Part shown: piece by piece, positions 1 through 64,000 of the stretch
Layout: every line of letters starts with the position of its first letter
How positions within the stretch are numbered: position 1 is the first letter of the stretch
Assembly (NCBI GenBank): GCA_049322955.1
Contig: JBMOPU010000012.1
Span: 886,186 to 950,185 of the forward strand
DNA: 64,000 nt
Source: Patescibacteria group bacterium
Lineage (GTDB): Bacteria > Patescibacteriota > Microgenomatia > UBA10105 > UBA927
Reading direction: 5' to 3'
Notes under the pieces: model-generated
Told to the model about the DNA's origin: nothing
Databases searched by the model: none
Seen by the model: only the letters and a program-made list of their open reading frames with translations
Made by a program: the position numbers and the translations under genes

Positions 1-656
1 GGTCGTGGACAAAATATTAAATAGAATATTATCGCTGTTGCGACGGTAAGAATAACGCCTCCATACAAGGGTGAACTAAATCCTAATCCTCCGTTAAAGA
101 AAACAGTGATTAACGCAATAGAAATTGCAGAAGGGAGAATTGAGCCATGACCTTCTAATATAGGCAGGATATATTTCATAAATAACGGCAGAGCGACATA
201 CACAGAAAAAGTAGTTGCGGCACCAAGCTTCCATAGCTCTAATAAAAAATAATTAATTCCGTAAAAAAAAGCTGCAATGAGGGGAAAATATCGATATGGA
301 AAAAGTTTATTAATTGATCGTGCAAATAAATAAATCGAAAGTAGTATCGCAAAAAACCAGAAGATAAAAGTTAAACGTTGAGCGTCGGTTATAGATAATC
401 CTAAATAGCTACCGAAGGCAAGAACGGTGTGAATGAATAATGAGCCAAAATGCATTGAGGTTTCTTGACCAAGACTATCGACATGTGTCCAGGCAAAAAA
501 ACGATTGAGATAGGTACTCTGTATGTTAATCGGATAAGCCGCGTCATTTCCCGTTACATATTGCCCCGGACCGATCCAAATAAGAGGAATTAAACTGACA
601 ATGAACAGGAGAAATAGGTCTACAAAGAGAGGAGAATTTTTAAAAACTCTACTCAT
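1..656 (-). CDS. polytopic membrane protein, N-terminal portion; the gene runs off the window start (GT-C-like, uncharacterised)
   Basis: I translated the minus strand by hand from ATG at 656..654 down to position 3 and found no stop (MSRVFKNSPLFVDLFLLFIVSLIPLIWIGPGQYVTGNDAAYP...). There are several hydrophobic helices. The ORF is absent from the ORF track because its stop lies outside the window. Its ATG overlaps the stop of the 653..1279 gene as ATGA. Confidence 0.5.
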   Translation of the reverse strand, partial: MSRVFKNSPLFVDLFLLFIVSLIPLIWIGPGQYVTGNDAAYPINIQSTYLNRFFAWTHVDSLGQETSMHFGSLFIHTVLAFGSYLGLSITDAQRLTFIFWFFAILLSIYLFARSINKLFPYRYFPLIAAFFYGINYFLLELWKLGAATTFSVYVALPLFMKYILPILEGHGSILPSAISIALITVFFNGGLGFSSPLYGGVILTVATAIIFYLIFCPR

Positions 657-1279
657 ACTTTTTTAACCGCAAATAAATCAAAGCATATGGATGGAACGCG
701 AAAAAAAATAACTTCCGAAATAAGCGAAATGAAGCCCCAAAAAAAATACGGTTTATGTCTGATACCCGCATGCTCCGTTCGTAATATTTTTAACCCTCTA
801 AGACCGTATACGACATATCCTAATTTAGTCAAATCACTAATTACCCAACCTGATTTATGAACCTGATACGGATTACCGTCGTACGCTTCTTGTTCATAAA
901 AACCATTTGGTGTTAATAGAATAATTTTTTTTCTGGCTATTTTCTCCATGGATTTAATCATTTTGATTGCCTCGCTCTTTTCAAGATGCTCGATGACATC
1001 AATTGATACAACCGCATCAAAACTCTTATTTTTATAATAATTTCCTAATCTACGTATATCCCCTAACTTATAAGAGTCGTGAAGCTTTCTTTTTTTACTT
1101 AGCTGCAGAGTTTTAGGATATATTTCGATGCCTTCACTTATAAATGTTTTACGAATATGCCCTATTGCGGAATTATATCCGCACCCCACATCCAAAACAG
1201 TTTTACAACCTCGCAGATGCCATTCAAGGCATTTAAAGAAAAAAATATTTTGAATATAGACGATAAAATTACGCAGCAT
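653..1279 (-). CDS. class I SAM-dependent methyltransferase
   Basis: Motif I VLDVGCGYN and a D-acidic motif II (AVVSIDVIEH) fit the Methyltransf_11/23 type. Length 208 aa. Confidence 0.75.
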   Translation of the reverse strand: MLRNFIVYIQNIFFFKCLEWHLRGCKTVLDVGCGYNSAIGHIRKTFISEGIEIYPKTLQLSKKRKLHDSYKLGDIRRLGNYYKNKSFDAVVSIDVIEHLEKSEAIKMIKSMEKIARKKIILLTPNGFYEQEAYDGNPYQVHKSGWVISDLTKLGYVVYGLRGLKILRTEHAGIRHKPYFFWGFISLISEVIFFRVPSICFDLFAVKKV

Positions 1280-2543
1280 AATTGCTCATGATGAAAAAAG
1301 CATTGGCGAATGTTCTTTCCCAGGTCGCATTCTTTGCATAATCATATGCACGACTTCTCATTTGTATATAACGTTTTCTATCAGATAGCAATGAAATCAC
1401 GGCGTTGCTGAACTCTCTAATGGTATCATTAACAACGAGGGCACCGCCATACTCAGCTACTTCTTTGCCTAACGGGGGGACTTTTGAGGAGATAACGGGT
1501 AGTCCGGCCGCACAGTACGCACGAATTTTACCAGCATCGGCATAAAACCTTATTGAACCTGGAAAAGATCGGTAGGGCGCAACTCCAAGCGCGCATTCAC
1601 GAAGCAAACTTGCCATTTTCGCTCCATCGGGTACATATCCGTAAAATTTAATATTTTTTTCTAAGTGAAGTTCTGCGACTAGTGATTGAAGTACGGGCAA
1701 TCGCTCCCCACCACCTATAATCCGCAACGTCGCTGTAGGGATTGCTTTTCGGATCTTTTGCATTGCGCGAATGATAAGATCTGGGCCATTCTCTTCACCC
1801 AAGGTCCCCATATAAACTAAGGCATGCTTTTTAATTTTAGTAATTTTTAAGGATTGAATTTGTGTAGCTAATAGACCGTTCGGAACATGAATGACCGGAG
1901 CTGATCTTACTGCGTTAAGCCCTGCAGAAATACGTGCCGGCTGCATAGCTTTCGAGACATCCCATATGTAATCCGAATGCATAGCCGCAAACCGATCAAG
2001 AACTAGATAAACCCGGTTAAAAAGTTTGTTGGCATACCGGTTTGGAGAATAATCCGATACGTAGTAGACGACCGTCTTCACCCTGCCGATGAAACGTAGG
2101 AGAATGCCCGCGATTGCATTGACGCTCTCAAGACCGATAAAGTAGTCAAAGCGGGTACTATCCCGAAATGCCCAATCGATCACCGACAGGAAATCCCGTA
2201 TCTTGAACGGCACCTGGGTGGCGTTGCTGTTGGTGAGCCGTAAAAACGGCGAAAGTATTCCGTACCACCAACCCATTTTATGAGAAATATATTTTTTGTT
2301 TCCGTCGTTGTATTCCTCGATTTTGTACGATATATCCTCTTCGCCCGGAACCAGCTGATCGAGTAAGACTAATTTTTTCACCCGGGGAAGCAAAAAATCA
2401 CGGAGCGGCTCGACGCTTCCGTTGGTCGGCATTCGTTTGCCGTTAGACCAGAGGGAAAAGGTCGCAAAAAAAACGGTACTGTCGGGAGAAAGGGTAAAGT
2501 TACGTACGTTTTTCATGCTGGACCCGAAGTTTTGCTTCTTCAA
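1269..2543 (-). CDS. glycosyltransferase family 4 (GT-B, Glycos_transf_1)
   Basis: C-terminal GT4 signature: VYMGTLGEENGPDLIIRAMQKI ... LRIIGGGERLPVLQSLV ... KFYGYVPD. Confidence 0.8.
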   Translation of the reverse strand: MKKQNFGSSMKNVRNFTLSPDSTVFFATFSLWSNGKRMPTNGSVEPLRDFLLPRVKKLVLLDQLVPGEEDISYKIEEYNDGNKKYISHKMGWWYGILSPFLRLTNSNATQVPFKIRDFLSVIDWAFRDSTRFDYFIGLESVNAIAGILLRFIGRVKTVVYYVSDYSPNRYANKLFNRVYLVLDRFAAMHSDYIWDVSKAMQPARISAGLNAVRSAPVIHVPNGLLATQIQSLKITKIKKHALVYMGTLGEENGPDLIIRAMQKIRKAIPTATLRIIGGGERLPVLQSLVAELHLEKNIKFYGYVPDGAKMASLLRECALGVAPYRSFPGSIRFYADAGKIRAYCAAGLPVISSKVPPLGKEVAEYGGALVVNDTIREFSNAVISLLSDRKRYIQMRSRAYDYAKNATWERTFANAFFIMSNYAA

Positions 2544-3324
2544 CCATCGCGGCTATCCCCTCCCGCAACTCGATTGAGGGAAGCCAGCCGGGAACCCTGC
2601 CGCAGTTGGGTGAAGCGATAGGATCGTGTCCCTTTTTGGTACCAGGAATCACCTTCGCGTTTGTCATGTCGGCGATCAAATTGGCAACATCAATGATACG
2701 TACCCATTCGTAACTGCTGGCGTCATAGACGGTTCGTCGCGGCTTTTTTTCGTTGAGCGCCATATAGAATGCGTTGGATAAGTCGGTAATATGTGTGAAC
2801 TGCCGCCATTCCTCGCCGTCGGTCATCATGGTGATCTTTTTTGTTTTTAGAGCCTGGTAGATAAAATCTGAGATCACGTGACTTTTGATATCCTCCCCTT
2901 CCATATAACCGTAGGCATTCCAGACCCGAACACAGACGCCGTTTAACAACCCCGTCCATACTTCTCCTAAGCGCTTGGTCACACCGTAGACCGTGTCCAC
3001 TTCCTCGGACAACTGGCTGGAAACAAACAAAAAGGGTTTTTTTGCCTTCTCCACCTGATCAAAAACATTTTTCATCAGGGCAAGATTCCAATCGAGCTGA
3101 TTTTTCTGAAGCTTCGGCACATAAAGATACTTACTCCCGCCGACATCCCACGCCAAAAAATAGACTTTATCAACTTTCGCCAGCGGGAGCTTGGCAAACC
3201 GCGCATCTTCCTTTTTTCCTCGCTTCACATCGAATCGTATTACCTTTTCGCCTTTCGCCTCCAAAAATCGGCAAAACGGCGTGCCGATAAATCCATCCGA
3301 ACCGATAACGAGATTGGTCTGCAT
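2500..3324 (-). CDS. NAD(P)-dependent sugar-nucleotide epimerase/reductase (short SDR)
   Basis: N-terminal Rossmann motif VIGSDGFIGTPF and a YxxxK catalytic motif (YGVTK). Length 274 aa. It sits directly downstream of the GME-like gene. Confidence 0.65.
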   Translation of the reverse strand: MQTNLVIGSDGFIGTPFCRFLEAKGEKVIRFDVKRGKKEDARFAKLPLAKVDKVYFLAWDVGGSKYLYVPKLQKNQLDWNLALMKNVFDQVEKAKKPFLFVSSQLSEEVDTVYGVTKRLGEVWTGLLNGVCVRVWNAYGYMEGEDIKSHVISDFIYQALKTKKITMMTDGEEWRQFTHITDLSNAFYMALNEKKPRRTVYDASSYEWVRIIDVANLIADMTNAKVIPGTKKGHDPIASPNCGRVPGWLPSIELREGIAAMVEEAKLRVQHEKRT

Positions 3325-3332: not shown

Positions 3333-4328
3333 TTATTTATCTTTGCGGTTATGACGCACCTGTTCGTTGATCCATACGTAGGTCTGGGCGAGACCGTCAT
3401 AGAGCTTGGTCGAAGGTGCCCAGCCGAGCTTCTTTTTGATGAGGCGATTATCAGATGATCTCCCGCGAACACCTAACGGTCCTTTAATGTGTTTAATCTT
3501 TAACTTTTTGCCGGCGATCTTCATCACCATTTCGGCCAGTTCATTAATACTCACCATTTCTTCGGATCCGATGTTGACCGGACCTTCAAAATCACTGTCC
3601 ATGAGCTTGCGTACTCCGTTTAAACACTCGTCGATATACAGGTATGACCGCGTCTGTTTCCCGTCCCCCCACATTTCGATGGTGCCGCCGTCTTTTGCCT
3701 GCGCAACCTTCCGACACATGGCGGCGGGTGATTTTTCCTTTCCGTTATTCCAACTTCCCTCGGGACCGAATATGTTATGGAATCGCGCGATGTGCACTTC
3801 CATACCGTAGTTACGCTTATACGCAAGATACATCCGTTCGCCGAAGATTTTCTCCCACCCGTATTCACTATCGGGTGCGGCGGGATATGCGGAAGATTCC
3901 TCGCAATTGGGGTTATTGGGATCCATCTGATTCCGTTCCGGATATATGCAGGCCGATGAGGAGAAAAAGATTTTCTTTATTTTGGCAAGTCTTCCGTAAT
4001 GCAGTGCATTGAGATTTATTTGTGCCGAATTATGCATGACGTCGGCATCATGATCTCCCGTAAAGATATATCCTGCGCCCCCCATATCGGCCGCCAATTG
4101 ATACACCTCATCAAACGGCAAGTTAAAGACTTTCTGACAAAATTTCTGATCACGAAGATCGCCGAGCAGGAACTCGTCAGCAGGACTTTTGCTGTATTCG
4201 TGACGTTTGATGTCTGCTCCCCGCACCCAATAGCCTTCAGCCTTCAGTCGCTTTACCATATGACCGCCGATAAAGCCTCCTGCACCGCACACTAACGCTA
4301 TTTTATGATTTCGTGATATTTTTTTCAT
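3333..4328 (-). CDS. GDP-mannose 3,5-epimerase-like enzyme (GME family, extended SDR)
   Basis: Rossmann motif VCGAGGFIGGH. Conserved blocks match plant GME as I recall it: LAADMGGAGYI, FSSSACIYPE, YGWEK (YxxxK), RFHNIFGPEGSW, GKEKSPAAMCRK, MWGDGKQTRSY, IDECLNGV, PVNIGSEEMVSINELAEMV, GVRGRSSDNRLIKKKLGWAP. Confidence 0.8.
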   Translation of the reverse strand: MKKISRNHKIALVCGAGGFIGGHMVKRLKAEGYWVRGADIKRHEYSKSPADEFLLGDLRDQKFCQKVFNLPFDEVYQLAADMGGAGYIFTGDHDADVMHNSAQINLNALHYGRLAKIKKIFFSSSACIYPERNQMDPNNPNCEESSAYPAAPDSEYGWEKIFGERMYLAYKRNYGMEVHIARFHNIFGPEGSWNNGKEKSPAAMCRKVAQAKDGGTIEMWGDGKQTRSYLYIDECLNGVRKLMDSDFEGPVNIGSEEMVSINELAEMVMKIAGKKLKIKHIKGPLGVRGRSSDNRLIKKKLGWAPSTKLYDGLAQTYVWINEQVRHNRKDK

Positions 4329-4344: not shown

Positions 4345-6360
4345 TTACTCTCGCGAATAATTATTTATTTTGATTATTATACATATTCCGGCAAAAATTA
4401 CCCATGCCAGGATGAGCAGGGGGCCTACAACGGATTGAGGAACATATCTTACAGTTGCAACTCCATGAACTCCTTTCGGAATCGTATATTCCTGCAAACC
4501 GTCGGGTGTTCGCTTTGGTTTCAATTCGATATCTTGCACTGAAAGCATCCAATACGGATTGTATGTCTCTGAAAAAATGATTGAAGCATCGCTATCACGC
4601 TCTGGTAGTACTAATGAGTATTCAGCTGGGGATATCATCGATACCGAAATTGATTGATTTGGCTGATCCACAAAAAAAGCATGGCCAAACGATATCGATG
4701 TACGCCAAATTGAAATACCGTCTATACGATCGTATCTTTCATAACGACGTGTTTCGTCAATGGCATTAATTATTGACTGCCGAGCATTATTATCCGGTTT
4801 TCCGTCTTTTACAAAAAGTTCATGTTCTACATCACTCGGAACAACAATATACTTGACTCCGTATCGTGCCAGCTGTTTATCATTTCCCTCTTCGGTGATC
4901 CAGGGAATAAACGCAGAGGTGCTGGCAATAGACAGTGTCTCTAATGAGATTGCTCGCTTGTTATCATCATAGTAACCGTATCTACTTCTGGTTGGAACCC
5001 ACAGAACCCGTGCAAAACCGTTATCCTCTCTCAGAAAATCCTTTAGTAAGACATATTCATTGGGTACTTTACCTGGAACTAATGTGCCGCGTATCCCGCC
5101 GGCATAAAAATCTCTGAAAGCGAACAACAGTAGACTCAACAATAAAGCAAAAAACCCCGTGCGAAGGTATATAAACAGTTTTTTATGTTTGATTGCGCGC
5201 ATAACAGCATCATTACTACGTTCTAACGTGTAGGCAATAAGCACCGTATAGGAGATTGAAATGAGAACATAAAATTTTGTCGGATCACGAAACATAACAA
5301 ATCCGGGAACATGCACGAACATCCACTCATAAAGAGATCCGAAAGGTTGATTAACCCCTTTTGCTAAAAATGCTCCAATGAGTCCCATAAAAGCGAAGAA
5401 CAAAATTTTTATTTTTTTCTCACGATCTTCCTTACCAAGGAACAACAGGGAACTGAAGGCAAGAATGGGAAATACAAGAAATTCGGGTCGTAAAAATGAC
5501 ATTTTTCCGAAGATATTTTCCGGCCAATTCGGATGAAGCAATGACATGGTATGAGATTGGTCTGCGAAACTGAAAAAGCGAAGCGCATCGGAAGATAAAT
5601 ATACCGGGCTCAACAAGGTATCGATGGGCGTTCGGTAAATAATTAACGGGAGGATCCAATACGCATGCAACCCGAAAATTATGAGGCCGGCACCGGTCCC
5701 GACTAACATGAGCCTAATATATACAACTTTCTTTACTCCTTTATTCAAAAAAACAAATACAATATAGGGCACAATTGCCATTACGGTGATATAAAAAATT
5801 CGCGCGTCAAACATAAGCTGAATGGCACCTATGACACCGACTAAACAGGTGGTGCGTACCAACTTGATAGATTCTCTATGGAGCAGATCCACAAGATGCA
5901 TGCTGAGATGAATAACAAGTGGTGCTATCGCAATTGCCCAAATCACTCCCATTTGTCCTCCTGAGAGAACCATAATAAAGTGCGTATTTATCACATACAG
6001 AATTCCCAGGAAAGAGAAGCGCGCCCTGACTAGGGACTGGGTAAGCCTGATGCTTGAAAATAATGCGATGATGATAAGCGGGATAAACCACACGATTCTC
6101 TCCGTAAATTCCCACGGAAGAGACATATTGGAAGCTATCCGGGCGGTGATAATGTACCACGTATCAAGAGGGGCCAATATCATTTTCCCCCCGCCCAATC
6201 CGTTTCCAAAATAGGTTGACCATGAAACCACCCATGGGTTCATGGAGCTGGAAAGCTCGACAAATCTGTATCCCCAATCGCCTGATGAAAGCGTACCGCT
6301 GATTCCCCATCGAACAAATATCGGGAGCAGTAACGTCATTGACAAGAATACGAAGATCAT
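4345..6360 (-). CDS. large polytopic membrane protein with YfhO-type C-terminal module (GT-C-like)
   Basis: Many TM helices followed by a C-terminal soluble domain ending YNPYWMLSVQD...IPKGVHGVATVRYVPQS and a final TM anchor. This is the same module seen in the YfhO-like proteins of the window. Sequence is AT-rich. Confidence 0.5.
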   Translation of the reverse strand: MIFVFLSMTLLLPIFVRWGISGTLSSGDWGYRFVELSSSMNPWVVSWSTYFGNGLGGGKMILAPLDTWYIITARIASNMSLPWEFTERIVWFIPLIIIALFSSIRLTQSLVRARFSFLGILYVINTHFIMVLSGGQMGVIWAIAIAPLVIHLSMHLVDLLHRESIKLVRTTCLVGVIGAIQLMFDARIFYITVMAIVPYIVFVFLNKGVKKVVYIRLMLVGTGAGLIIFGLHAYWILPLIIYRTPIDTLLSPVYLSSDALRFFSFADQSHTMSLLHPNWPENIFGKMSFLRPEFLVFPILAFSSLLFLGKEDREKKIKILFFAFMGLIGAFLAKGVNQPFGSLYEWMFVHVPGFVMFRDPTKFYVLISISYTVLIAYTLERSNDAVMRAIKHKKLFIYLRTGFFALLLSLLLFAFRDFYAGGIRGTLVPGKVPNEYVLLKDFLREDNGFARVLWVPTRSRYGYYDDNKRAISLETLSIASTSAFIPWITEEGNDKQLARYGVKYIVVPSDVEHELFVKDGKPDNNARQSIINAIDETRRYERYDRIDGISIWRTSISFGHAFFVDQPNQSISVSMISPAEYSLVLPERDSDASIIFSETYNPYWMLSVQDIELKPKRTPDGLQEYTIPKGVHGVATVRYVPQSVVGPLLILAWVIFAGICIIIKINNYSRE

Positions 6361-6371: not shown

Positions 6372-7424
6372 CTACGATTGCCCTAGCTTTCGTACAATTT
6401 TTCTCAACGGTGAAATTATTCTTGATAATCTTGCTCTTATACTACTTCCGTTGTATTCCCATATGTACGCGCATAGGGCAAGTGCGATGAAATAATAAGT
6501 CCAAACTGCATACCCTTCGGCGATATCAATTTTGTTGAGTGCCACGTATACGGTCGAAAGCATATACATGGCCAAACCTACGATAAAATAGGCACTTCCG
6601 CCGATATTAAACTTTACGATTACAAAAAATAGAGTGGCAAGCTTAAAATATAGCTCTGCTTCATATCCCATTTCCTGTAGCGGTACATATACTGAACTAT
6701 ATATCCGATACGCAATAAACACTATTAATGTTGCGGTTACATACCTGTTGTTCATTATTTTCCATATCAAATACAACAGTGTCGGCAGAAGATATAAAAG
6801 AATATAGGAATAAAACTCCACGTCCTGTGATAGATTTTCAATTTTTATCTTAAAGTATTTCATAAATGTCTCTAAATCTTTCAAGGGATGTATCTTGTCT
6901 ACACGATATTTTGTTAAAAAGGCGACAGTATCAAAATGCACCTGTATACCTTCCCCTTTCGTATATTCGCTTTCAAGCGTAACGGTGTATCGTATATTTT
7001 TAGATTCAATAATCGTTGGAAATCCTAGAGGGTAAAAATTTCCCCCGTAAAGGACACGCATGTCATAGTGTCCCGTAAATAACAGTTCGCCCGTGTCCTG
7101 ATTCATTAATTTGAAAGTAATTACCCCTTCTGGATCTTCTTTAGGTAACTTGAAACGCAGTGCAATCGTTCCGAGGTTATTCATCTGGGATGTGAAACTG
7201 AACTGCACGGTTCCCGGGTTGGGCAAAGTTACATATTCATTCTCTTCTACATTTTTCTGATGATAAAAATTCAAGGAAAAAAAGCTTGCTCCCGGATAAT
7301 TAACAATCCCGTATAAAAATCCGATAAGCGCCAATATGCACGGAATAATGATCCAGGCAACACTTACCTTTAGAAGATGGTAAAGCTTAAAATATTGTTT
7401 TTTTTCCATGGAAGATTTCTTCAT
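6372..7424 (-). CDS. membrane protein with N-terminal anchor, ~200-aa extracytoplasmic domain and C-terminal TM bundle
   Basis: One TM, then a hydrophilic beta-rich stretch, then 4-5 TM helices. An A8 tract lies at codons 7-9 (coords 7398..7405). Function unknown. Confidence 0.45.
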   Translation of the reverse strand: MKKSSMEKKQYFKLYHLLKVSVAWIIIPCILALIGFLYGIVNYPGASFFSLNFYHQKNVEENEYVTLPNPGTVQFSFTSQMNNLGTIALRFKLPKEDPEGVITFKLMNQDTGELLFTGHYDMRVLYGGNFYPLGFPTIIESKNIRYTVTLESEYTKGEGIQVHFDTVAFLTKYRVDKIHPLKDLETFMKYFKIKIENLSQDVEFYSYILLYLLPTLLYLIWKIMNNRYVTATLIVFIAYRIYSSVYVPLQEMGYEAELYFKLATLFFVIVKFNIGGSAYFIVGLAMYMLSTVYVALNKIDIAEGYAVWTYYFIALALCAYIWEYNGSSIRARLSRIISPLRKIVRKLGQS

Positions 7425-18414: not shown

Positions 18415-18426
18415 AGATAGGCATGA

Positions 18427-19209: not shown

Positions 19210-19221
19210 ACATGCCCCGTA

Positions 19222-20247: not shown

Positions 20248-20259
20248 AACGATCCTCCT

Positions 20260-21051: not shown

Positions 21052-21052
21052 C

Positions 21053-22986: not shown

Positions 22987-22993
22987 CATACGA

Positions 22994-37346: not shown

Positions 37347-37381
37347 TGTACTAAATCAACTTATGCTTGACCATTGAGGGA

Positions 37382-38893: not shown

Positions 38894-38936
38894 TCTGCTC
38901 GTATTCTTGTTATAATGCCAATAGCCTCGTACCTAT
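38894..38936 (+). promoter_or_regulatory. divergent intergenic region with extended -10 (TGnTATAAT) for the plus-strand block
   Basis: TG at 38908-38909, TATAAT at 38911-38916, about 20 nt upstream of ATG 38937. This is the only strand-switch spacer in the window. Confidence 0.35.
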
Positions 38937-44552: not shown

Positions 44553-44553
44553 T

Positions 44554-55375: not shown

Positions 55376-56135
55376 GCGACTTTTTTTGCTGTAATTCCCA
55401 CAACTTCGCATACGTGATAAACAAGCTAAAGCCCTGATAGATGCTTTCGATCCATCCGACCGTACCGGCACGCCATCCGCCGAGTGTGAAAAACGAATGG
55501 AAAAAGCCCGTAAGGGTAACGCGGATCATGCGCCACCAGGTCATGGCAGGATGACGGGCGACAAAACGCAACTCGGCTTCCGTTTCACTCCACTCATTTG
55601 TTTTATCGACCATTTCCGCAAGCGTCCGATGCGTATCATGGAGAAGCTCTCCTTCCAGTCGCGCCACTTTCCCTTCAATACGCGCCGTTTCATGAAGTTC
55701 TCCTTCCCACCCGCGAAATGCCGAAACCCGAAACAGCCTCAGCATCCATTCACCTCCCGGCCATGGGTGCCCCAGATAGTAGTTTTTCCGATACAGCTCG
55801 TAGCCGGCAATCGGGGTTTCATTTTTCCCCGAAAGCACGGCTTCTATCGCCCGTGCCAGTGTCGGGGTCACCATCTCATCGGCATCAACAGAAAGCACCC
55901 ACGCACCCGATACATACTTCATCGCATGATTGCGAAGCGTCGCAAACCCTTCATGACGCACCGTAATCACCCGTGCCCCCGCGTGTTTTGCGACAATTGC
56001 GGTCTCGTCTGAGGAGCCGTTGTCTATAACGATAATTTCTCCCAAGTCGCCCAAGGCACCGATACACCCACCGATACGCGGTGCTTCGTTTCTGGCGACA
56101 ATAACGATACTAAGCGTTTGTTTTTTTCGGTTCAT
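55368..56135 (-). CDS. glycosyltransferase family 2
   Basis: LSIVIVARNEAPRIG...EIIVIDNGSSDETA...LSVDADE. Start trimmed to MNRKKQT. Confidence 0.75.
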   Translation of the reverse strand: MNRKKQTLSIVIVARNEAPRIGGCIGALGDLGEIIVIDNGSSDETAIVAKHAGARVITVRHEGFATLRNHAMKYVSGAWVLSVDADEMVTPTLARAIEAVLSGKNETPIAGYELYRKNYYLGHPWPGGEWMLRLFRVSAFRGWEGELHETARIEGKVARLEGELLHDTHRTLAEMVDKTNEWSETEAELRFVARHPAMTWWRMIRVTLTGFFHSFFTLGGWRAGTVGWIESIYQGFSLFITYAKLWELQQKKSHE

Positions 56136-57030
56136 AGCGCATTCCCCACCGCATAAAGAAAAAATCTCCGACGGCCTGCCGTTTTTCCCGGTTTGTTCCG
56201 AAAAGAAACGTACCTCCCTCACGGAGTAAGGCTATTTTCGTCCGGAGGGATGCATACCGCATCCCGAGGAGTAATCGGTTTCTCGTGATGTAATAATCGT
56301 GTATCGGATTACCGGCTCCTCCCGATGAACCCGCGTTGACGTGCCAAATGACCGATGTCGGTTGATACATGAGCCGATACCCCGCTCTCTTTGCGCGAAG
56401 GCAAAAATCCAGATCCTCAAGATAAAGGTAATACGCGTCATCAAGCATACCGACGGATTCGATCACCCGCCGGTCTATCATCATCGAGCAACCCGTCACG
56501 AACGGAGTTTCCGTACGCTGGTCATATTGTCCGTGATCCACTTCGTCAACGCCGCGGTGTGATGCATAGACATTATCCCAATCAACGAGTCCTCCCGCAT
56601 ACCAAAACACGCGACCCCGTTCTTTTTTGGTATAGCGGGATTTGTGAAATTCATGTCCCGGCGCAAAATATATTTTTGAACCGGCAATCCCCACGCTATC
56701 TTCTTCAAACGCATCGAGCAGTGAAAGTGCTTCAGGGTCGACAATCGTATCATTATTGAGTAACCACACATAATCTGCTCCCAGTTTCATCGCATAGGTC
56801 ATACCCACGTTGTTGCCGCCGGTAAAACCGCGGTTCGTATCGAGTTTTAACAAGGTTACCTTCGGAAAATCCCGTGCAAGAATCGCGACGGAATCATCGG
56901 TCGAACCGTTATCCACGACGATCGTGAGCACCTCGACGGTATTGCGGCGAAGTTTTTCAAGCGATCGAAGACACACCGACGTGTCTTTATGGCCGTTCCA
57001 GTTCACGATGACGATGGCAACTTTTTTCAT
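56110..57030 (-). CDS. glycosyltransferase family 2
   Basis: VAIVIVNWNG ... VVDNGSTDDS ... LLNNDT. Confidence 0.8.
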   Translation of the reverse strand: MKKVAIVIVNWNGHKDTSVCLRSLEKLRRNTVEVLTIVVDNGSTDDSVAILARDFPKVTLLKLDTNRGFTGGNNVGMTYAMKLGADYVWLLNNDTIVDPEALSLLDAFEEDSVGIAGSKIYFAPGHEFHKSRYTKKERGRVFWYAGGLVDWDNVYASHRGVDEVDHGQYDQRTETPFVTGCSMMIDRRVIESVGMLDDAYYLYLEDLDFCLRAKRAGYRLMYQPTSVIWHVNAGSSGGAGNPIHDYYITRNRLLLGMRYASLRTKIALLREGGTFLFGTNREKRQAVGDFFFMRWGMRYEPKKTNA

Positions 57031-57032: not shown

Positions 57033-57932
57033 TTATTTTCCCAGTTTTCGCGTAATCTTATGACGAAGTTTTCCCAAAACGGATTTTGTTTCCTCGATCC
57101 GCGCGGTACTTATCCAATACGACACCTCTTTTCCCGTTTTTTTCATTTCGGCAATGACCGTTTCGACGGGAATCTCCATATCGACAAACCGTTCACGCTC
57201 CCAAAGCTTTATGAAAATGAGAAAGGAATAGAACGCCTGAAGCAGGGCAAGCACTAATCCGTGCAACCCGTCCTTATACCCTCCCTGGGCAAAATAGAGT
57301 TTGATAAAATCGGAAGCGGGAAAACGGATCGCATCCTGCCACGTGACGGTATATCCCAGAGAAACATATTTCTGCACCTCATTTTCGGTGTACACCCGCT
57401 CCATTTTTTCCAAATACTGTCCGACGCTATCATAGTTATAGTGCGTATAGGGATTTTTGAGCGTGCCGAGCTTTCCTGCAACATCGATATACTCATGGAC
57501 ATGCTTTTGGGGATACTTTCCCGCGCCATTTTTGAAAAGCCGTAACTGAAGATCGGGCCACCATATGCCGTGTTGAATCCACTTGCCGAAAATCATGTTT
57601 TTGCGCGGTATCCAATATCCGTCCGCATCGTCTTGTGAAATTGCGGCGCGTATTTCTTCCGAAAGAGGGAGAGTCACTTCTTCATCGTCATCCAGGCAAA
57701 GAATCCAATCCCCGCTTGCTTTGGAAAAACCGAAATTCTTATTCACGTTCAGCATCAGATTATTCGGTCGCGAAAAAACTTTTGCGCCGAACTTTTTGGC
57801 CACTTGCGACGTGTCGTCGGATGATTCGTTATCGACGACAATAATCTCGTCGGCAAGCTTTTTTACGGAAGCAAGGGTTCTTGCCAGACTTTTTGCCCGG
57901 TTATGGGTACTGATGACGACGGATAGTTTCAT
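57033..57932 (-). CDS. glycosyltransferase family 2
   Basis: LSVVISTHNRAKSL ... EIIVVDNESSDDT ... CLDDDEE. Confidence 0.8.
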   Translation of the reverse strand: MKLSVVISTHNRAKSLARTLASVKKLADEIIVVDNESSDDTSQVAKKFGAKVFSRPNNLMLNVNKNFGFSKASGDWILCLDDDEEVTLPLSEEIRAAISQDDADGYWIPRKNMIFGKWIQHGIWWPDLQLRLFKNGAGKYPQKHVHEYIDVAGKLGTLKNPYTHYNYDSVGQYLEKMERVYTENEVQKYVSLGYTVTWQDAIRFPASDFIKLYFAQGGYKDGLHGLVLALLQAFYSFLIFIKLWERERFVDMEIPVETVIAEMKKTGKEVSYWISTARIEETKSVLGKLRHKITRKLGK

Positions 57933-59380
57933 TGGGTGCTCCTCCTTATCATGCCGACAAATGCGTGTATTTTATTTTTTTCCAAGAAAAAAAGCGTGCC
58001 CGCATAGATCCCCATGCCGATAATTCCCAACAGAACGAGGTATATATAGGTATGCGGCACGACCGTAAGCGACACCCAATAGGAAATCCCCTGCACGACG
58101 GTTGCGATAATAGGCCCTTTGACGTTATCGATAAACGAAAAATCGGCAATCCCTTTCGCCACTCGGATAACGAGAATGATCGACAATGACACGACAAGGA
58201 GCGCAAGAGCGACACCGTTATAACCGAAAAATCGCATGAACAGCAGGGTACATGCCCACGTACCGACCGTCCATCCCACCATAAACGTTAACGTTGTGCG
58301 TATTTTCCCCACGGCATTTAACGCATTCATCAGCGGTGTCGAAAGTGCCGCGATAGCCGAGGAAAAAACAAAAAAGTAAAACGACAAAAGCGCGGGTTCC
58401 CATTTGGCATAGCGGGGTATGAGACCGACCATCGGATGGACAAAAAACAGCAACCCCGTCGATAGCGGCAGAATAGCGGAAGCCAAACCGAACATTGTTT
58501 TATCAATTGCTTTTTCCAGAAGCTTTTTGTCATGTTGGAGCCGTGAATACGTGGGAAACGTCACGCGGATGACGCTATCCATGATAAGCCTCAGCGGAAC
58601 CTCCGCCCATTTTTTCGCCCATCCGATGTATCCTACTTCCGCAAACGGTAAAACCCTACCCAAAAAAACCGTCATAAGATCGTCCTTTAACAGAGCCAAA
58701 AACGAATTCATCTGGAACGGAATACCAAATTTCATCAGCCGCTTTGCGCTTGCCCGGGAGACCGTGAATCGGGGAAACCAAGGCTCAACAATGTACATTG
58801 TGATAAGTCCGACAATCCCCCGCACCAATACCGCCCAGGTGAAACTTGTTATGCCCTGTCCTTTCCAGGCGAGAAAAACGGCCACGCCGTAAAAACCGAG
58901 CGTTTCCACGATATGGGGAATAACCAAACGATCAAAGGAAAGTTTCCGTTCAAGTAATACCGAGGGAATGGTCTTGAGACTCGAAAGAAAGAACGATACG
59001 GCGAGTGCGCGAAACAACCACACTCCCGACGCGTCAAGCCGATAAAACGATGCGATAAATTCGGATAATACCAGACTAATGACAACGAGCGTGAGAACCA
59101 GCGCCTGTTGAATGACAAACGTGGTATTTAAGTCGTCGAGCGTCACCTCATCCTTTTTTTGCACCAATGCGGCGGCCAATCCGATGTCGGAAAAATATCC
59201 CAGGAACGAAATAATCGCGGAAACGACATAAAAAACGCCGAAGACGTCCGGGGTCAAAAAAAGCGTTAATAAAAATGTCGCTCCGAACGCGACTACCTGA
59301 AGGATAAACGTGCGAACGGTGAGGGCCACAACTCCGACAACCGAGCGTTTTTTTATAACCTCCAAATCAATGTCTGGCAT
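57929..59380 (-). CDS. Wzx-type oligosaccharide flippase (MOP superfamily, Polysacc_synt)
   Basis: 483 aa, about 14 TM helices. N-terminal KRSVVGVVALTVRTFILQVVAFGATFLLTLFLTPDVFGVFYVV is typical of Wzx/TagG-like flippases. Confidence 0.8.
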   Translation of the reverse strand: MPDIDLEVIKKRSVVGVVALTVRTFILQVVAFGATFLLTLFLTPDVFGVFYVVSAIISFLGYFSDIGLAAALVQKKDEVTLDDLNTTFVIQQALVLTLVVISLVLSEFIASFYRLDASGVWLFRALAVSFFLSSLKTIPSVLLERKLSFDRLVIPHIVETLGFYGVAVFLAWKGQGITSFTWAVLVRGIVGLITMYIVEPWFPRFTVSRASAKRLMKFGIPFQMNSFLALLKDDLMTVFLGRVLPFAEVGYIGWAKKWAEVPLRLIMDSVIRVTFPTYSRLQHDKKLLEKAIDKTMFGLASAILPLSTGLLFFVHPMVGLIPRYAKWEPALLSFYFFVFSSAIAALSTPLMNALNAVGKIRTTLTFMVGWTVGTWACTLLFMRFFGYNGVALALLVVSLSIILVIRVAKGIADFSFIDNVKGPIIATVVQGISYWVSLTVVPHTYIYLVLLGIIGMGIYAGTLFFLEKNKIHAFVGMIRRSTQ

Positions 59381-60149
59381 ACGGTAGCTTTCTCCACGGC
59401 CGCGTGGTATATAACCGCCACAATCCTTTCAAGTCCCCAAGCGCCGTTTTCATGACACGCACCGTAGACCCGGGATTATCGATCCACGTCACCGGTTCTT
59501 CGTAAATCCGATACCCGCTCTTCTCACCGACGATCAGGAGTTCACTGTCAAAAAACCATTCGTTATCTTTCACCTGCGGCATGAGCTCGCGTACGACCCT
59601 TCGGGAGACCGCCTTAAATCCGCATTGCGCATCGGTGAAATTCACCCAGAAAAAAAGCTTGATAAGGCTGATATATCCTTTTGATGTAATCGACCGAAGG
59701 GTGCTTCTGCCGAATACTCTCGCTCCCTTCGTATTTCTGCTCCCTATTGCCATGTCAAAACCGCGCTCGAGCGCATGCAAGAGCGGCGGCAGGTGCTTCA
59801 GATCGGTCGAAAGATCTATATCCATGTAGGCAAGATAATCATAGTCGCCTTTGCGCCAGACGTGCTTCACCGCCCTTCCCCGTCCTTTTTGCGAAAGATG
59901 TTCTACCGACACGGATTGATACGTACGACTGAGTTCACGCGCGATTTTCAAAGTGGCATCGGTGCTTGCGTTATCGGCGATCGTTATATGCCAGGAAAAA
60001 TCGGAGAGATTTTTTGCCAGGTAACGGATGAGGGTGCCGACACTCGTTTTCAATTCCACCGCTTCGTTATACACGGGAAGCACGATATTAACGCTTGGTT
60101 TTGTGCTGCTTGGCATAAAGATAATAAATAAAAATAATAAGGCTAACAA
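59367..60149 (-). CDS. polyprenyl-phosphate glycosyltransferase (GT2; Dpm1/GtrB-like)
   Basis: VNIVLPVYNEAVEL ... ITIADNASTDATL ... QKGRGRAV ... YMDIDLSTDL. Confidence 0.75.
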   Translation of the reverse strand: MLALLFLFIIFMPSSTKPSVNIVLPVYNEAVELKTSVGTLIRYLAKNLSDFSWHITIADNASTDATLKIARELSRTYQSVSVEHLSQKGRGRAVKHVWRKGDYDYLAYMDIDLSTDLKHLPPLLHALERGFDMAIGSRNTKGARVFGRSTLRSITSKGYISLIKLFFWVNFTDAQCGFKAVSRRVVRELMPQVKDNEWFFDSELLIVGEKSGYRIYEEPVTWIDNPGSTVRVMKTALGDLKGLWRLYTTRPWRKLPYARH

Positions 60150-61737
60150 GCGAAATACCGTTGCCGATAACCCGTATCGGCGTATCGGTAAAACGCATGG
60201 TTATATACGACTGACCCGCGGCAAGAGTAAGCTCGGGCAATCCGTTTTTGACGGTCGGCCGTACTTCTTTATCGTCAATAAAATACCGCCAACCGGGAAA
60301 CGGCGCTTTGTTGATACGAACGGGCATCTCTTCCGCCGCAATGACGGACCATACTTCCCGGGTCGTGGTTTTTGTCAGCAACCGCGCCGACAGGCCGTTT
60401 CCTTCCTCTATTGTAGCAAAATCAGCTTCTTTCGGTGTGTCCGGCCGGGGGACGGAACGCGGAAGGTATTCATCGGAAATTTTTGATACCCGCCACCTGA
60501 CATCGGAAGGGGCTTCAAATGCGGTACTTGGTTTCTCATAGGTATATTGGGGCATAAACCATTTGCCGTTTAACAGTATAACCCCGACGCAAATGGCTAT
60601 GGTTGCCGCCCATTTGGCAACGGCGTTTTTTACCGGGAGCATCGCAAAACTTCCCAAGAGTGACGTGCCGAACATAAGAATCCCCAGAAAACGCCAGGGA
60701 TATTGAAGGTAGGCAAAGCCGGGGATGCTATCCCACAACCATTTTGAAGCTTCGGTCGCAAACAATACTCCTACAAATGCCGCGGCGACCGCAACTCCTA
60801 TAAGTCCGGCCATTCGTTTCGGCCGCAATACAAGCGCCGTCACCAGTCCGGCAAAACCGAGAAGCAGATGGGCTTTCCCGACCATAAACGACATGCCGTC
60901 AACACATCCTTTCGCGGATCCGCCGAATCCCCAGAGTGATGCGTACAGTTGGGTGATACATACGAAGTGATCCTTATAATCGGCACTGGCACTCACCTGG
61001 CCGGAAACCCCGGTAAACTGCATTTCAAACATTGCAGGGAGCCAGAAAAAACCCGCAAGCCCCATACCGAGAAGCAGCGGAACGGATGCGGAAAGCGTTT
61101 CGCGAAGCCGGTCGCGATTACGAAGATATCGAACCATCCGATACAGGACAAAGGAACACCCGACGAAGATCGTCACCGCAAATCCCATGAGGGTATGGGA
61201 GAGGATCACTCCTCCGATCCCGATCGCTCCCGCCGCCGCCGACTTCTTTGTTGCGGGTTTTCCCCATCCCGTAATCCAGTAGGCAATAAGGGGGAAAAAC
61301 ACGAGGGACCAATATTCACCCACCGCCCCCCGAACGTATATCTGTACCGCATGATAGGGCGCAAAAAGAAAGAGTACGCCGGCAAGAAGTCCGTACGGCA
61401 GTTCGATAAGCAGCGTTACCAACAATGCGGGCAGTAGGATCCCTGCGGCAAACATGATTTTGGTTGCCAAAACGGCGGGGACACCCACGGCATACAGCAA
61501 CCCGCCGAAATAATACGGTAACGGTCCGTAAAAATTAAAAATCGGATAACCGTATCCGTACCCTAACTCATTGACCCATCGGACGGGAAACTGGAAATCA
61601 CGAAGCGCCCTTCCCATTTCGATGACACGGGCAACCTGCGTATCATCGTGCATCGGGAAGAACCCCGGAGATACGAGCGGCCGGACGGCAAAAAAACCCG
61701 CAAGCGCAAGCAAAATATACGGTAGGACTCGTTTCAT
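60088..61737 (-). CDS. YfhO-related polytopic membrane protein (HD...RW family, member 4)
   Basis: FFPMHDDTQVARVI...FPVRWVNELGYGYGYPIFNFYGPLPYY, FAPYHAVQIYVRGAVGE, C-terminal PFPGWRYFIDDKEV then a TM anchor. I verified the start ATG at 61737 (ATGA overlap). Confidence 0.6.
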   Translation of the reverse strand: MKRVLPYILLALAGFFAVRPLVSPGFFPMHDDTQVARVIEMGRALRDFQFPVRWVNELGYGYGYPIFNFYGPLPYYFGGLLYAVGVPAVLATKIMFAAGILLPALLVTLLIELPYGLLAGVLFLFAPYHAVQIYVRGAVGEYWSLVFFPLIAYWITGWGKPATKKSAAAGAIGIGGVILSHTLMGFAVTIFVGCSFVLYRMVRYLRNRDRLRETLSASVPLLLGMGLAGFFWLPAMFEMQFTGVSGQVSASADYKDHFVCITQLYASLWGFGGSAKGCVDGMSFMVGKAHLLLGFAGLVTALVLRPKRMAGLIGVAVAAAFVGVLFATEASKWLWDSIPGFAYLQYPWRFLGILMFGTSLLGSFAMLPVKNAVAKWAATIAICVGVILLNGKWFMPQYTYEKPSTAFEAPSDVRWRVSKISDEYLPRSVPRPDTPKEADFATIEEGNGLSARLLTKTTTREVWSVIAAEEMPVRINKAPFPGWRYFIDDKEVRPTVKNGLPELTLAAGQSYITMRFTDTPIRVIGNGISLVSLIIFIYYLYAKQHKTKR

Positions 61738-63326
61738 GATGAGTGCGTTAGGCGCCGCAACACAATGCAATAACAGATAAACGACAGGATACTTATCAAA
61801 TCCGCGGCCAATCGAAACGGTGTCTCACGAAAATCGGCGGATACGACATGGGTTCCTTTGGGAATTTCGATACGCATGACTCCCAATCGGTTCGCATAAT
61901 CAATAGGCGTCAATCGGTTGTCAACGGTAATCCCCCATCCGGGATAATAAATTTTATTGATCTGAATCGTGCTTGACTCTTTTGCTTCCGCGGTAAAGGT
62001 GATTTTTTCGCCGGAAAACGTGCGCGTTGAAAGGAGAGCGTCGCCGTTTATCACTTCCAAGGTTTCCACGGGACGATTCACGGGGATATCATGCACCCAT
62101 CGGGGCATATACTCGTTTGCGACGGTAGTCGTCGCTTCGTTTGTCACGTAATAGCCCGTGTCACGCCGTACGGGAGAAACCTCACCCAATAGAACGGATG
62201 CCGTTGATAACCAAACTGAAAAAAGTACCGCGGATAAGGCGACCCGCCGCCAACCCGAAAGATGTTCAAAAACCGCGGCGATAATCCACGGCCCGAACAG
62301 TACGGGCAATAACAACGCGCGGTACGGAAACTGAAAAAGGACGGAAAATGCGGATATGTTCCATACGGGAGCAGTAATCGGAAGCGCAAGTATGATTCCC
62401 GCTATCGCCCAAAAAAATGCAACCGATTCAAACCGGGTAATTTTTTTCCGTAAGCCCAGAAATACCGCAAGCGCAACCACGGTGCCCAACCCGATAAGTC
62501 CGGCATTCAGCGGCGTAATAAAGTACGATGACGGATCCGAAATGACGACGGCATCAAACCGAACCAAATGTTTCTCCAGAAGGGCGGGAATCCAGAAAAA
62601 ACTGGCAAACCCCACGCCGATTGCGCCGGCGGTCAAAAACATGCCTCTTGCCGGAACGCTCATCGCAAGGGTGGCGATTGCAATCCCCAAAAGGAGCGCC
62701 GCCGAATTATGGCTTATGATAAGAAGCCCTATCATGGGGGCAAACAACCACCCCCACCCTCTGACAATGGCGGTGACGGCCCAGGATGCGGCGGCGATCG
62801 CCAGTACTTCTCCCACCGACCCACGATGATACATATCAAAAAGGAGATACGGAGCAAAGACAAGACTTACTGCCCCCATGGTCCGTGCCCATCTTCCGTA
62901 TGTTTTCCGAAGTCCCGCGTAGACGGCAATAACGGCCGAGACAACGGAACCGGCAAGGATGATTTTTACCGCATCCTGAAATGACGCGCCGAGAATATGC
63001 AGCAGGGATCCCAAGTAGAGAAACCCCGGATACAGAAAGTTACTCACCGGATAGCCGTAACTGTTGTTCAATCTTCCCAAAAATCGCACCGGGAATTGTC
63101 CGTCGGCGAGACTTTGATAGAATGCCGACAGCCGGATTATCATCCACTCACCGTCGTCCGTAATAAAAAATCCCGATCGCATCAGGGGTGTCAGAACAAG
63201 AAAAAGTGCCGCCGCAATAAGGAGCAACGACCAACGGGAGAAAAATCCCGAAGGACTCTCCCTATCACGGTTCGGGGCAAGTGAGTGGCCGGAGTTTTTT
63301 TGCATTGATGGTTTTTTCTTTCTCAT
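61734..63326 (-). CDS. YfhO-related polytopic membrane protein (HD...RW family, member 5)
   Basis: FFITDDGEWMIIRL...FPVRFLGRLNNSYGYPVSNFLYPGFLY, FAPYLLFDMYHRGSVGE, C-terminal YYPGWGITVDNRL...IPKGTHVV then a TM anchor. Confidence 0.6.
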   Translation of the reverse strand: MRKKKPSMQKNSGHSLAPNRDRESPSGFFSRWSLLLIAAALFLVLTPLMRSGFFITDDGEWMIIRLSAFYQSLADGQFPVRFLGRLNNSYGYPVSNFLYPGFLYLGSLLHILGASFQDAVKIILAGSVVSAVIAVYAGLRKTYGRWARTMGAVSLVFAPYLLFDMYHRGSVGEVLAIAAASWAVTAIVRGWGWLFAPMIGLLIISHNSAALLLGIAIATLAMSVPARGMFLTAGAIGVGFASFFWIPALLEKHLVRFDAVVISDPSSYFITPLNAGLIGLGTVVALAVFLGLRKKITRFESVAFFWAIAGIILALPITAPVWNISAFSVLFQFPYRALLLPVLFGPWIIAAVFEHLSGWRRVALSAVLFSVWLSTASVLLGEVSPVRRDTGYYVTNEATTTVANEYMPRWVHDIPVNRPVETLEVINGDALLSTRTFSGEKITFTAEAKESSTIQINKIYYPGWGITVDNRLTPIDYANRLGVMRIEIPKGTHVVSADFRETPFRLAADLISILSFICYCIVLRRLTHSS

Positions 63327-63344
63327 ACCCGTACCGCCCTACCG

Positions 63345-64000
63345 TTACTTTTTTGCGGCACCGAAATCGGCAACCGGAGCATCCACTCTATAGAACCGCA
63401 TCATCCGCTTGTCTTCTCTCATCCCTTTTCGATACTCGCCGATAAGCGTCATCGGCCAATCCGGTTTTGTCTGTGTTTCGTTCAAGACAAAGTAGGTGGC
63501 GCTTTCGCTTGCCGCGGTAACGATATCATCAGGCATGGTTTCTGGAAGCGGCCACATACCGGTGATACGTACGTTCGGATTATCGACAAGATAAATTTCG
63601 ATCGCGTACGGAAGCAGTCCGAATGTTCCTTCCGTAAATACCTGTATTTTTTGATGCGCCGCCTCGGCGGTAAGATAGGTAACCACTTCCTTTACTCCGT
63701 ACCCTGCCGGCCAATCATCCAAAAATTGCCCGCGTTCGGATTCGGGTATGGGGGCGGCAACGGGATTGGTAATAATAAACCAATCCATAAAGAGTGAAGG
63801 GACGACGAGCACGAAGACAAGAAGCAGGCGTGCCATCCGATTTTTCATCGCGTCCCATACCGTAACCGCCGTTGAAGCCGCAACGATAAGCAGCGGCATC
63901 ATCATAAAAAAGATAAAACGCGGGTACAGTATTTTTGCAAATGTCGCAAGTGCCGCAAACGGAAGCGCCCACCAGACATACAGGAACCATCGCTCCCTGT
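63345..64000 (-). CDS. membrane protein, C-terminal portion; the gene continues beyond the window end
   Basis: I translated the minus frame upstream of 63905 through position 63996 and found no stop (...RERWFLYVWWALPFAALATFAKILYPRFIFFMMMPLL...). There are hydrophobic helices, then a ~140-aa soluble tail. Confidence 0.45.
   Translation of the reverse strand, partial: RERWFLYVWWALPFAALATFAKILYPRFIFFMMMPLLIVAASTAVTVWDAMKNRMARLLLVFVLVVPSLFMDWFIITNPVAAPIPESERGQFLDDWPAGYGVKEVVTYLTAEAAHQKIQVFTEGTFGLLPYAIEIYLVDNPNVRITGMWPLPETMPDDIVTAASESATYFVLNETQTKPDWPMTLIGEYRKGMREDKRMMRFYRVDAPVADFGAAKK

Follow-up and report, generated by a model that had tools for sequence, protein, structure and literature searches.

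The 64,000-nt stretch of contig JBMOPU010000012.1 analysed here, referred to below as the window, forms the middle part of a locus for cell-envelope glycans in a genome of about 1 Mb from Candidatus Gottesmanbacteria (Microgenomates; candidate phyla radiation (CPR)/Patescibacteria). The membrane proteins encoded in it are, as judged from family relationships, overwhelmingly predicted glycosyltransferases of the GT-C fold: 21 genes could be assigned to this fold with confidence, spanning 35.2 kb or 55% of the window, and to these may be added one probable member (g10) and two possible ones (g00 and g08/g09). The core of the locus, from about 16 to 64 kb, is ancient and conserved gene for gene across species and classes. 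The whole probably serves as a fixed extracytoplasmic assembly line, in which few lipid-linked donors would feed many specialised GT-C enzymes, a reading built on family membership and gene order.

The taxonomic placement agrees with the occurrence of g35 homologues, at 65–72% identity, in named Candidatus Gottesmanbacteria metagenome-assembled genomes (MAGs), and a related complete chromosome measures 995 kb. NCBI records of a Patescibacteria group bacterium contain proteins 100% identical to g39 and g07 on a contig of 990,597 bp, which is probably that of the window. The window contains 53 open reading frames (ORFs), 51 of them complete and two cut at the window ends; 49 lie on the minus strand and only g35–g38 (38937–46206) on the plus strand, so that all genes below are on the minus strand unless marked (+). 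Genes abut or overlap, the largest intergenic gap being at most 45 bp. By Pfam and NCBIfam matches and homology, 51 of the 53 ORFs belong to glycan-synthesis families, the exceptions being g06 and g25, which bears out an earlier note, made from the letters of this DNA alone, that it encodes almost nothing but glycan machinery. The guanine-plus-cytosine (GC) content is 35–41% across approximately the first 16 kb and about 50% in the rest, with a step from about 39% to about 50% near 14–16 kb. Neither tRNAs nor Rfam families were found in the window, and scans for promoters and terminators gave counts not clearly exceeding the shuffled expectation. Glycan genes run past both window ends: the left flank (10 kb fetched) holds the full 1154-aa g00, an acetyltransferase, two GDSL proteins and further short-chain dehydrogenase/reductase (SDR) genes, and the right flank (5 kb fetched) holds the remainder of g52, a PQ-loop protein, an MptA_B-family GT-C, a glycosyltransferase of family GT2 and another PMT_2 protein. 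With these flanks the locus measures at least about 79 kb, which corresponds to some 8% of a genome of about 1 Mb.

GT-C membrane enzymes of the window

GT-C assignments were graded by the Pfam cut-off, failing that by a BLAST or hhalign profile link and failing that, for g39, by structure prediction. The 21 confident genes comprise eight PMT_2-like, three YfhO, five YfhO-related (family B), two divergent YfhO-like and two GT87-like genes together with g39, and the candidates other than g39 have 5–11 transmembrane (TM) segments by hydropathy count. The PMT_2-like group consists of g30 (31188–32816), g31 (32822–34450), g32 (34460–36094), g34 (37382–38893; a divergent subfamily by Pfam and hhalign), g37 (42939–44552, +), g38 (44554–46206, +), the frameshifted g28/g29 (29658–31183) and the cut g52 (63345–64000), which is the C-terminal part of a 510-aa protein interrupted by the window edge. 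All of these save g28/g29 exceed the Pfam PMT_2 cut-off, g52 being counted because its full-length 510-aa form scores 49.9 bits. The first-loop aspartate of a D-E/D-Q motif is invariant across nine PMT_2-like proteins, g10 among them, the loop being assumed from family knowledge to face outward.

Genes g36 (40567–42921, +), g42 (49776–52016) and g44 (53069–55351) exceed the Pfam YfhO cut-off. In family B, g35 (38937–40574, +) and g50 (60088–61737) exceed the PTPS_related cut-off and are joined through BLAST by g23 (24046–25587; also by profile links) and, with support from alignment, by g27 (28000–29685) and g51 (61734–63326). The five members are 25–32% identical, and share an invariant Asp32 in a conserved H-D motif as well as a conserved QxPxR motif. 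In hhalign profile–profile comparisons family B was linked to YfhO at 99.7%, the PMT_2 family to g34 at 99.6%, PMT_2 to family B at 94.9% and g33 to PMT_2 at 96%. A profile of g07 (7434–9668) and its homologues, 13 sequences in total, matched YfhO at 98.3% (E 1.5e-14, 548 columns) and g05 (4345–6339) at 98.0%; g05, which has no direct Pfam match, also matched family B at 93%, and both genes are taken as divergent YfhO-like enzymes. The GT87-like pair is formed by g24 (25584–26681), 7 of whose 32 family members match GT87 and whose paralogue just outside the window is recorded as PF26314 (MptA_B_family), and by g33 (36066–37346), for which Pfam GT87 gives 23.6 bits against a cut-off of 25.

Three candidates were graded lower. 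The probable PMT_2-like g10 (10828–12441) reaches 23 bits with Pfam PMT_2, under the cut-off, and matches the g34 family at 83.9% over 404 aa in hhalign. The overlapping ORFs g08 and g09 (190 and 196 aa; 9649–10823) are possibly one split GT87-like gene, linked to the g24 family at 85.5% and with a faint Alg6_Alg8 match. The N-terminal 218 aa of the 1154-aa polytopic protein g00 (1–656, cut by the window edge) may be YfhO-like, hhalign against GT-C profiles giving only 23–59%.

The same sets of eight PMT_2-like, three YfhO and five YfhO-related proteins that the earlier note had listed were thus recovered by Pfam, BLAST and profile links, and the exceptional density of GT-C genes that it had stressed is borne out by their share of the 64 kb. 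Its total of about 25 is sustained for 21 genes, with g10 probable and g00 and g08/g09 possible, and had to be reduced by g06, which is not GT-C-like. Accordingly, of its nine other polytopic proteins g05 and g07 proved YfhO-like, g24 and g33 GT87-like and g39 a predicted GT-C, the remaining four being the lower-graded candidates and g06. The ORFs g28 and g29, counted separately at first, represent one frameshifted gene, and g08 and g09 may likewise be one gene.

As many as 11 membrane ORFs have no direct Pfam match. Their reading as transporters was rejected, since the Pfam-less proteins group with GT-C in hhalign and structure comparisons, and the membrane proteins as a whole fall in GT-C families by Pfam, profile and structure searches. 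Sequence and profile searches of the PDB returned nothing useful for the g24, g20 and g39 families, family B or g31, and an exact look-up of the g51 protein gave no record.

The most distinctive of the Pfam-less proteins is g39 (46218–47936), the most conserved protein across the compared part g27–g42. It has no Pfam match itself; among the 120 homologues listed almost none has one (one carries PF26265), and all those with a source name are from Patescibacteria. Its AlphaFold model has a predicted local distance difference test score (pLDDT) of 92.1 and a predicted template modelling score of 0.91, and the structural neighbours of the model include AftA, AftB, AftD, Emb and PimE. Residues Asp33, Glu34 and Asp36 are invariant in the family, which like the PMT_2-like proteins and family B (Asp32) has conserved acidic residues in the presumed first outer loop, and the STT3-type WWDXG motif is not conserved in g39. 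On the strength of this model g39 is predicted to have the GT-C fold. A profile search of 1.84 billion representatives yielded 1470 relatives, among which some distant ones (P0204 and P0232, about 670–710 aa) have a GtrA_DPMS_TM domain at the N terminus, fused with the GT-C body, and some match PMT_2. Such an arrangement would be a flippase–transferase fusion.

Conservation of the core across Microgenomates

The stretch g27–g42 occurs in the same order and orientation in seven other Gottesmanbacteria species genomes, with one-to-one orthologs at 47–85% identity. Beyond that group, Levybacteria-type and other Microgenomates genomes again show the order g32-g31-g30-g28/29-g27-g26-g25-g24-g23-g22-g21-g20-g19, and likewise g51-g50-g49-g48-g47 to g41. 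Paralogs within the window are only 25–35% identical by BLAST; the duplications are therefore old, with every copy kept since, and recent tandem duplication was rejected on the same ground. Related loci were retrieved with a two-sequence alignment of family B as the query, and the 49 that are at least 15 kb long have a median of 9 GT-C genes per 21 kb, a value biased upward because the loci were picked around a family B gene. Many of the related MAG contigs are titled 'uncultured Gammaproteobacteria bacterium', and are syntenic with and 48–83% identical to Gottesmanbacteria genes; the label looks like a placeholder or an error.

Candidate lipid-linked sugar synthases and flippases

Three short GT2 proteins, g19 (20260–21048), g21 (22300–23010) and g49 (59367–60116), group together by BLAST and lack a C-terminal TM domain. 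For g21 and g49 the best solved relative is the dolichol-phosphate mannose synthase (DPMS) of P. furiosus (PDB 5mlz), matched over the full catalytic domain with E values of 4e-21 and 2e-16, respectively, followed by ArnC and GtrB; g21 is also AglJ-like (1e-33). The weakest of the three is g19, a candidate GtrB/ArnC/PpgS-like polyprenyl-phosphate-sugar synthase by NCBIfam and PDB relatives, which matches GtrB and ArnC weakly. The closest solved relatives therefore agree with the three Dpm1/ArnC/GtrB-type enzymes of the earlier note, and g21 and g49 are regarded as candidate polyprenyl-phosphate-hexose synthases.

Both predicted flippases of the multidrug/oligosaccharidyl-lipid/polysaccharide (MOP) superfamily stand beside these genes. 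The Wzx-type g48 (57929–59380) was found by direct match (Polysacc_synt_3, 1e-50; NCBIfam MOP flippase, 113 bits) and adjoins g49. The divergent g20 (21053–22303; Wzx/PST-type), placed between g19 and g21, was recognised through its family only, 14 of 18 members matching Polysacc_synt_3, and hhalign links it to g48 at 36%. The two adjacencies, g21-g20-g19 and g49-g48, each with a MOP flippase beside a DPMS-like GT2, are kept in distant Microgenomates, and this makes a synthase, flippase and GT-C logic plausible. That part of the three-component scheme put forward earlier can be retained; the flippases are of the Wzx/PST type and not GtrA, and no repeated triplets occur. A three-component system in which a MATE/MOP-type flippase replaces GtrA has been described by Kelly et al. 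2024 (PMC11127046), and because of this precedent a role of g20 and g48 in flipping monophosphate-linked sugars is plausible by analogy.

A 104-aa PQ-loop/SemiSWEET-like membrane protein is encoded among GT-C genes approximately 950–1260 bp past the right window end (L010:2673–2987, minus strand). The eukaryotic MPDU1, required for the use of dolichol-phosphate (Dol-P)-mannose and Dol-P-glucose, is a PQ-loop protein, and it may be speculated from this likeness that the small protein is a candidate lipid-phosphate-sugar flippase in a locus without GtrA.

Proposed pathway and its main competitor

In the proposed assembly line the SDR enzymes would provide modified nucleotide sugars, and cytoplasmic GT4 and GT2 enzymes would build lipid-linked primers or units. 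The DPMS/GtrB-like g19, g21 and g49, which consist of the catalytic domain only, would load single sugars on polyprenyl phosphate, and the neighbouring MOP flippases g20 and g48 would move lipid-linked sugars across the membrane. On the outer side, at least 21 GT-C enzymes of five anciently diverged groups (PMT_2-like, YfhO, the YfhO-related family B, GT87-like and the g39 family) would then act, each being responsible for one particular sugar or linkage. An envelope polymer, a lipoglycan or surface proteins may serve as acceptors, and methyltransferases would add methyl decorations. The GT-C enzymes would thus not be interchangeable modules; rather, one donor set would be shared by specialised transferases. 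Their use of polyprenyl-phosphate-linked donors is a prediction with indirect support from the DPMS-like GT2 neighbours and from the GtrA fusions among g39 relatives.

Several observations weigh against this scheme. The three synthase candidates score far under the NCBIfam equivalog cut-offs, g19 being weak altogether, and because of these scores and the missing membrane domain they are candidates at the family level only. GtrA (PF04138, GtrA_DPMS_TM) was found neither in the window proteins nor in the fetched flanks (10 kb left, 5 kb right). No initiating phosphoglycosyltransferase of the WbaP/WecA type (Bac_transf, Glycos_transf_4) was detected in the window or among the called genes of those flanks, and no match to a Wzy polymerase (Wzy_C, O-antigen-polymerase) was obtained in either, g06 and g00 being without an assigned family. 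The Wzx-like MOP flippases may move diphosphate-linked oligosaccharides instead of monophosphate sugars. Finally, a kept gene order does not prove sequential action on one product, and several independent products, or protein O-glycosylation, suit the data equally well.

Protein O-glycosylation as the main function, with PMT_2/PMT-like and YfhO-like enzymes each modifying one class of secreted, S-layer or pilus proteins, is unlikely, yet it is the strongest competitor of the assembly line. Models for it exist in POMT, TMTC and TMEM260 of animals and in Pmt of Actinobacteria. It draws on the DPMS-like synthases, on the small secreted DUF5667 protein g25 kept inside the cluster and on g32, g37 and g38, the only proteins above the cut-off of Pfam PF02366 (PMT); in these three, however, the PMT N-terminal domain occurs without the MIR and PMT_4TMC domains of the GT39 protein O-mannosyltransferases, neither of which was found in the window. 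Moreover, the GT87/MptA-like and YfhO families are known from glycolipid and polymer pathways, and the 12 cytoplasmic GT2 and GT4 enzymes, the Wzx-type flippases and the methyltransferases suggest a polymer.

Variation at the left end

When the locus was compared within its lineage for conservation or hypervariability, the core proved conserved, and only the left end, approximately 1–16 kb, differed, together with the absence of g28/g29 from a sister strain. The low-GC island takes up roughly the first 16 kb of the window and reaches about 7.5 kb further to the left. In the sister strain (CAYUZE010000002.1) the sequence follows the window at 91% identity down to position 14028, inside the methyltransferase gene g12 (13505–14383), past which that strain has different low-GC glycan genes. 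At this breakpoint it has a 129-aa ORF (L001:15865–16254), an apparent truncated remnant of g12, followed in DNA of 36% GC by a GT2, a pyruvyl transferase, another GT2 and a 552-aa protein. The left-flank part of the island (L004:14459–18995) encodes the hexapeptide acetyltransferase and the two GDSL/SGNH proteins (963 and 347 aa), which suggest O-acetylation of the glycan or O-acetyl removal from it. Within the core, identity to the sister contig is 91% over 14028–29601 and 82% over 31177–40198, a shift that suggests mosaic recombination.

A frameshift near 30398–30419 divides one gene, whose protein would have about 500 aa, into g29 (N-terminal half) and g28 (C-terminal half). The gene is intact and syntenic in four other Gottesmanbacteria genomes and absent from the sister strain, and its interval is the only part of the window without same-species cover; the split is due either to gene decay or to an assembly error.

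The earlier note had seen in the locus a multiplied three-component system that could support combinatorial glycosylation and serve as a candidate for surface diversity or phage evasion, an idea taken here to include evasion of hosts. The swapped island, the frameshifted and strain-specifically missing g28/g29, the uneven identity to the sister strain and the very few homologues of the island GT-C candidates g05, g07 and g10 all speak for this idea, which has nevertheless to be judged improbable, slightly more so than protein O-glycosylation. Against it stands above all the one-to-one synteny of the core across species and classes; the paralogs are old, and just three synthases and two flippases accompany at least 21 GT-C enzymes with no repetition of triplets. 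Phase-variation tracts are also lacking, as no homopolymer longer than 8 nt and a single short repeat, (TG)5, were seen in the window, none of them at the g28/g29 frameshift, although inverted repeats and invertible elements were not searched. The reading as a diversity generator is therefore not supported for the core; the left end shows ordinary variation of the serotype-cassette kind and is not a dedicated diversity generator, and the swapped low-GC cassette probably sets a strain-specific outer decoration.

As to the integrity of the sequence, DNA assembled independently from other samples agrees with the window to at least 99% across 1–22540 and 36223–64000, and the two intervals compared with the sister contig above add further independent cover at 91% and 82%. 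The GC step lies within a single Logan contig that is 100% identical to the window. This contig and the independent cover show that the window is not a chimera, in line with its synteny in other species. Despite the GC step and the 11 Pfam-less membrane ORFs, an artefact, be it a chimeric assembly or transporters mistaken for glycosyltransferases, is therefore extremely improbable, given the step-spanning contig, the cover of nearly the whole window by other samples, the synteny and the profile and structure comparisons that assign the Pfam-less proteins to GT-C.

Other genes of the window

The soluble and peripheral enzymes counted in the earlier note, namely 10 GT2, 5 GT4, 2 flippases, 4 methyltransferases and 4 epimerases/reductases, were reproduced in full by Pfam and NCBIfam, g20 through its family. 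Besides the three synthase candidates the GT2 proteins are g11 (12465–13508), g15 (16478–17314), g26 (27257–28024), g41 (48854–49774), g45 (55368–56135), g46 (56110–57030) and g47 (57033–57932), all with Pfam matches, of which g26, g45 and g47 form a Glyco_tranf_2_4 subgroup by Pfam and BLAST. The GT4 proteins, likewise assigned by Pfam, are g02 (1269–2516; Glycos_transf_1, 7e-21), g13 (14380–15540), g16 (17311–18414), g22 (22994–24049) and g43 (52020–53072). Pfam also identified the S-adenosylmethionine (SAM)-dependent methyltransferases, which in addition to g12 are g01 (653–1279; Methyltransf_11), situated in the variable island, g17 (18427–19209) and g40 (47970–48848). The SDR nucleotide-sugar epimerases/dehydratases comprise g03 (2500–3324; Pfam Epimerase, 2e-19), g04 (3333–4328), with GDP-L-fucose synthase as its top NCBIfam match, g14 (15537–16481), similar to nucleoside-diphosphate-sugar dehydratases/epimerases by Pfam and NCBIfam, and g18 (19222–20247), resembling dTDP-glucose 4,6-dehydratase and GalE under equivalog cut-offs. 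Since the NCBIfam matches of the SDR and GT2 proteins all fall under the curated cut-offs, the sugars cannot be named.

The two proteins outside glycan-synthesis families differ in their conservation. The membrane protein g06 (6372–7424) is a near-orphan with only 4 homologues among 5.8 billion sequences; alignment indicates one TM segment, an extracytoplasmic beta-rich domain of about 160 aa and then four TM segments, and its AlphaFold2 model is not a confident one (pLDDT 54). The small secreted g25 (26727–27260), a DUF5667 protein by Pfam, has g24 and g26 on either side in 32 related loci; an acceptor, a scaffold or a chaperone are conceivable roles for it. The 1154-aa g00 (L004:10624–14088 on the retrieved contig) also has a weak match to DUF5667 in its middle.

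Relation to known glycosylation systems

The assembly of lipoglycan and arabinogalactan in mycobacteria and corynebacteria (Ppm1, PimE, MptA/B/C, EmbA/B/C, AftA–D, Pmt) is similar to the proposed pathway in that one or two polyprenyl-phosphate-sugar donors feed many GT-C enzymes acting sequentially outside the membrane. GT87/MptA-like and PMT-like families are common to both, and the structural neighbours of g39 come from this set. The mycobacterial GT-C genes are scattered through a 4.4-Mb genome, whereas at least 21 are found here within 64 kb of contiguous DNA in a genome of about 1 Mb; families of the YfhO type prevail, the DPPR/DprE arabinose pathway is absent and the host is a CPR bacterium. 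The Dol-P-sugar pathways of the endoplasmic reticulum (ER) lumen (ALG3/9/12/6/8/10, PIG-M/V/B/Z, POMT, DPY19) also combine few lipid-phosphate-sugar donors with many GT-C paralogs of fixed steps, and the PQ-loop protein just outside the window is a further likeness. The present locus differs from them in being bacterial and without orthology at the sequence level, and in the lack of a conserved WWDXG motif in g39.

Three-component systems of the Gtr or YfhO/CsbB/GtcA type, exemplified by Gtr of Shigella and Salmonella, the glycosylation of lipoteichoic acid (LTA) in Bacillus and Listeria and the pentofuranose system of C. youngae (PMC11127046, PMC5836110, PMC8035078), encode a GtrB/DPMS-like GT2, a flippase and a GT-C together and offer a precedent for a MOP (MATE) flippase. 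Their ratio of 1:1:1 contrasts with 3:2:at least 21 in the window, which has no GtrA or GtcA and flippases of the Wzx/PST type, and whose ancient, conserved core does not have the character of an accessory, serotype-converting or prophage-borne module. From the YfhO-dependent glycosylation of LTA and wall teichoic acid, the YfhO domain is represented by g36, g42 and g44, and GtcA is missing from the window. With Wzx/Wzy O-antigen and capsule loci the locus shares SDR, GT2 and GT4 enzymes, a Wzx-type flippase, methyltransferases and a low-GC cassette replaceable between strains; it differs from them in that neither an initiating phosphoglycosyltransferase nor a recognisable Wzy was found in the window and the fetched flanks, and in the GT-C share of its DNA. 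O-antigen and capsule loci are not known to have GT-C genes at 55% of the DNA. By analogy, the locus would best be read as resembling the mycobacterial lipoglycan/arabinogalactan and ER-lumen pathways more than the Gtr-type serotype modules.

Implications

Full-text literature searches aimed at this topic returned no paper describing such an expansion. The enzyme superfamilies are all known; their scale, their concentration in a single block of a genome of about 1 Mb and their deep conservation in Microgenomates appear to be undescribed. Members of the CPR/Patescibacteria are ultra-small, mostly uncultured bacteria with a minimal metabolism and an almost unknown cell surface. That about 8% of such a genome is spent on one glycan locus whose order is kept over deep time implies that a complex glycan of the envelope is put together outside the membrane and is of great importance to the cell. 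The locus offers a concrete target for glycomics, cryo-electron tomography and enrichment work, as well as a large natural set of diverged GT-C enzymes, including the Pfam-less g39 with its confident model, for studies of donor and acceptor specificity. With GtrA absent, MOP flippases adjoining DPMS-like synthases and a PQ-loop protein nearby, the question of which protein flips polyprenyl-phosphate sugars becomes testable as well.

More tentatively, and with rather less than even confidence, it may be proposed that Microgenomates, with genomes of about 1 Mb, keep an ancient, lineage-defining extracytoplasmic GT-C pathway of considerably more than 20 enzymes, comparable in complexity to that of the mycobacterial cell wall or the ER lumen, which builds an undescribed envelope glycoconjugate central to their episymbiotic lifestyle. 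If this holds, the pathway would include at least one new GT-C family, the g39-like proteins for which there is no Pfam model, and Wzx-type MOP flippases or a PQ-loop/MPDU1-like protein would replace GtrA in the translocation of polyprenyl-monophosphate sugars.

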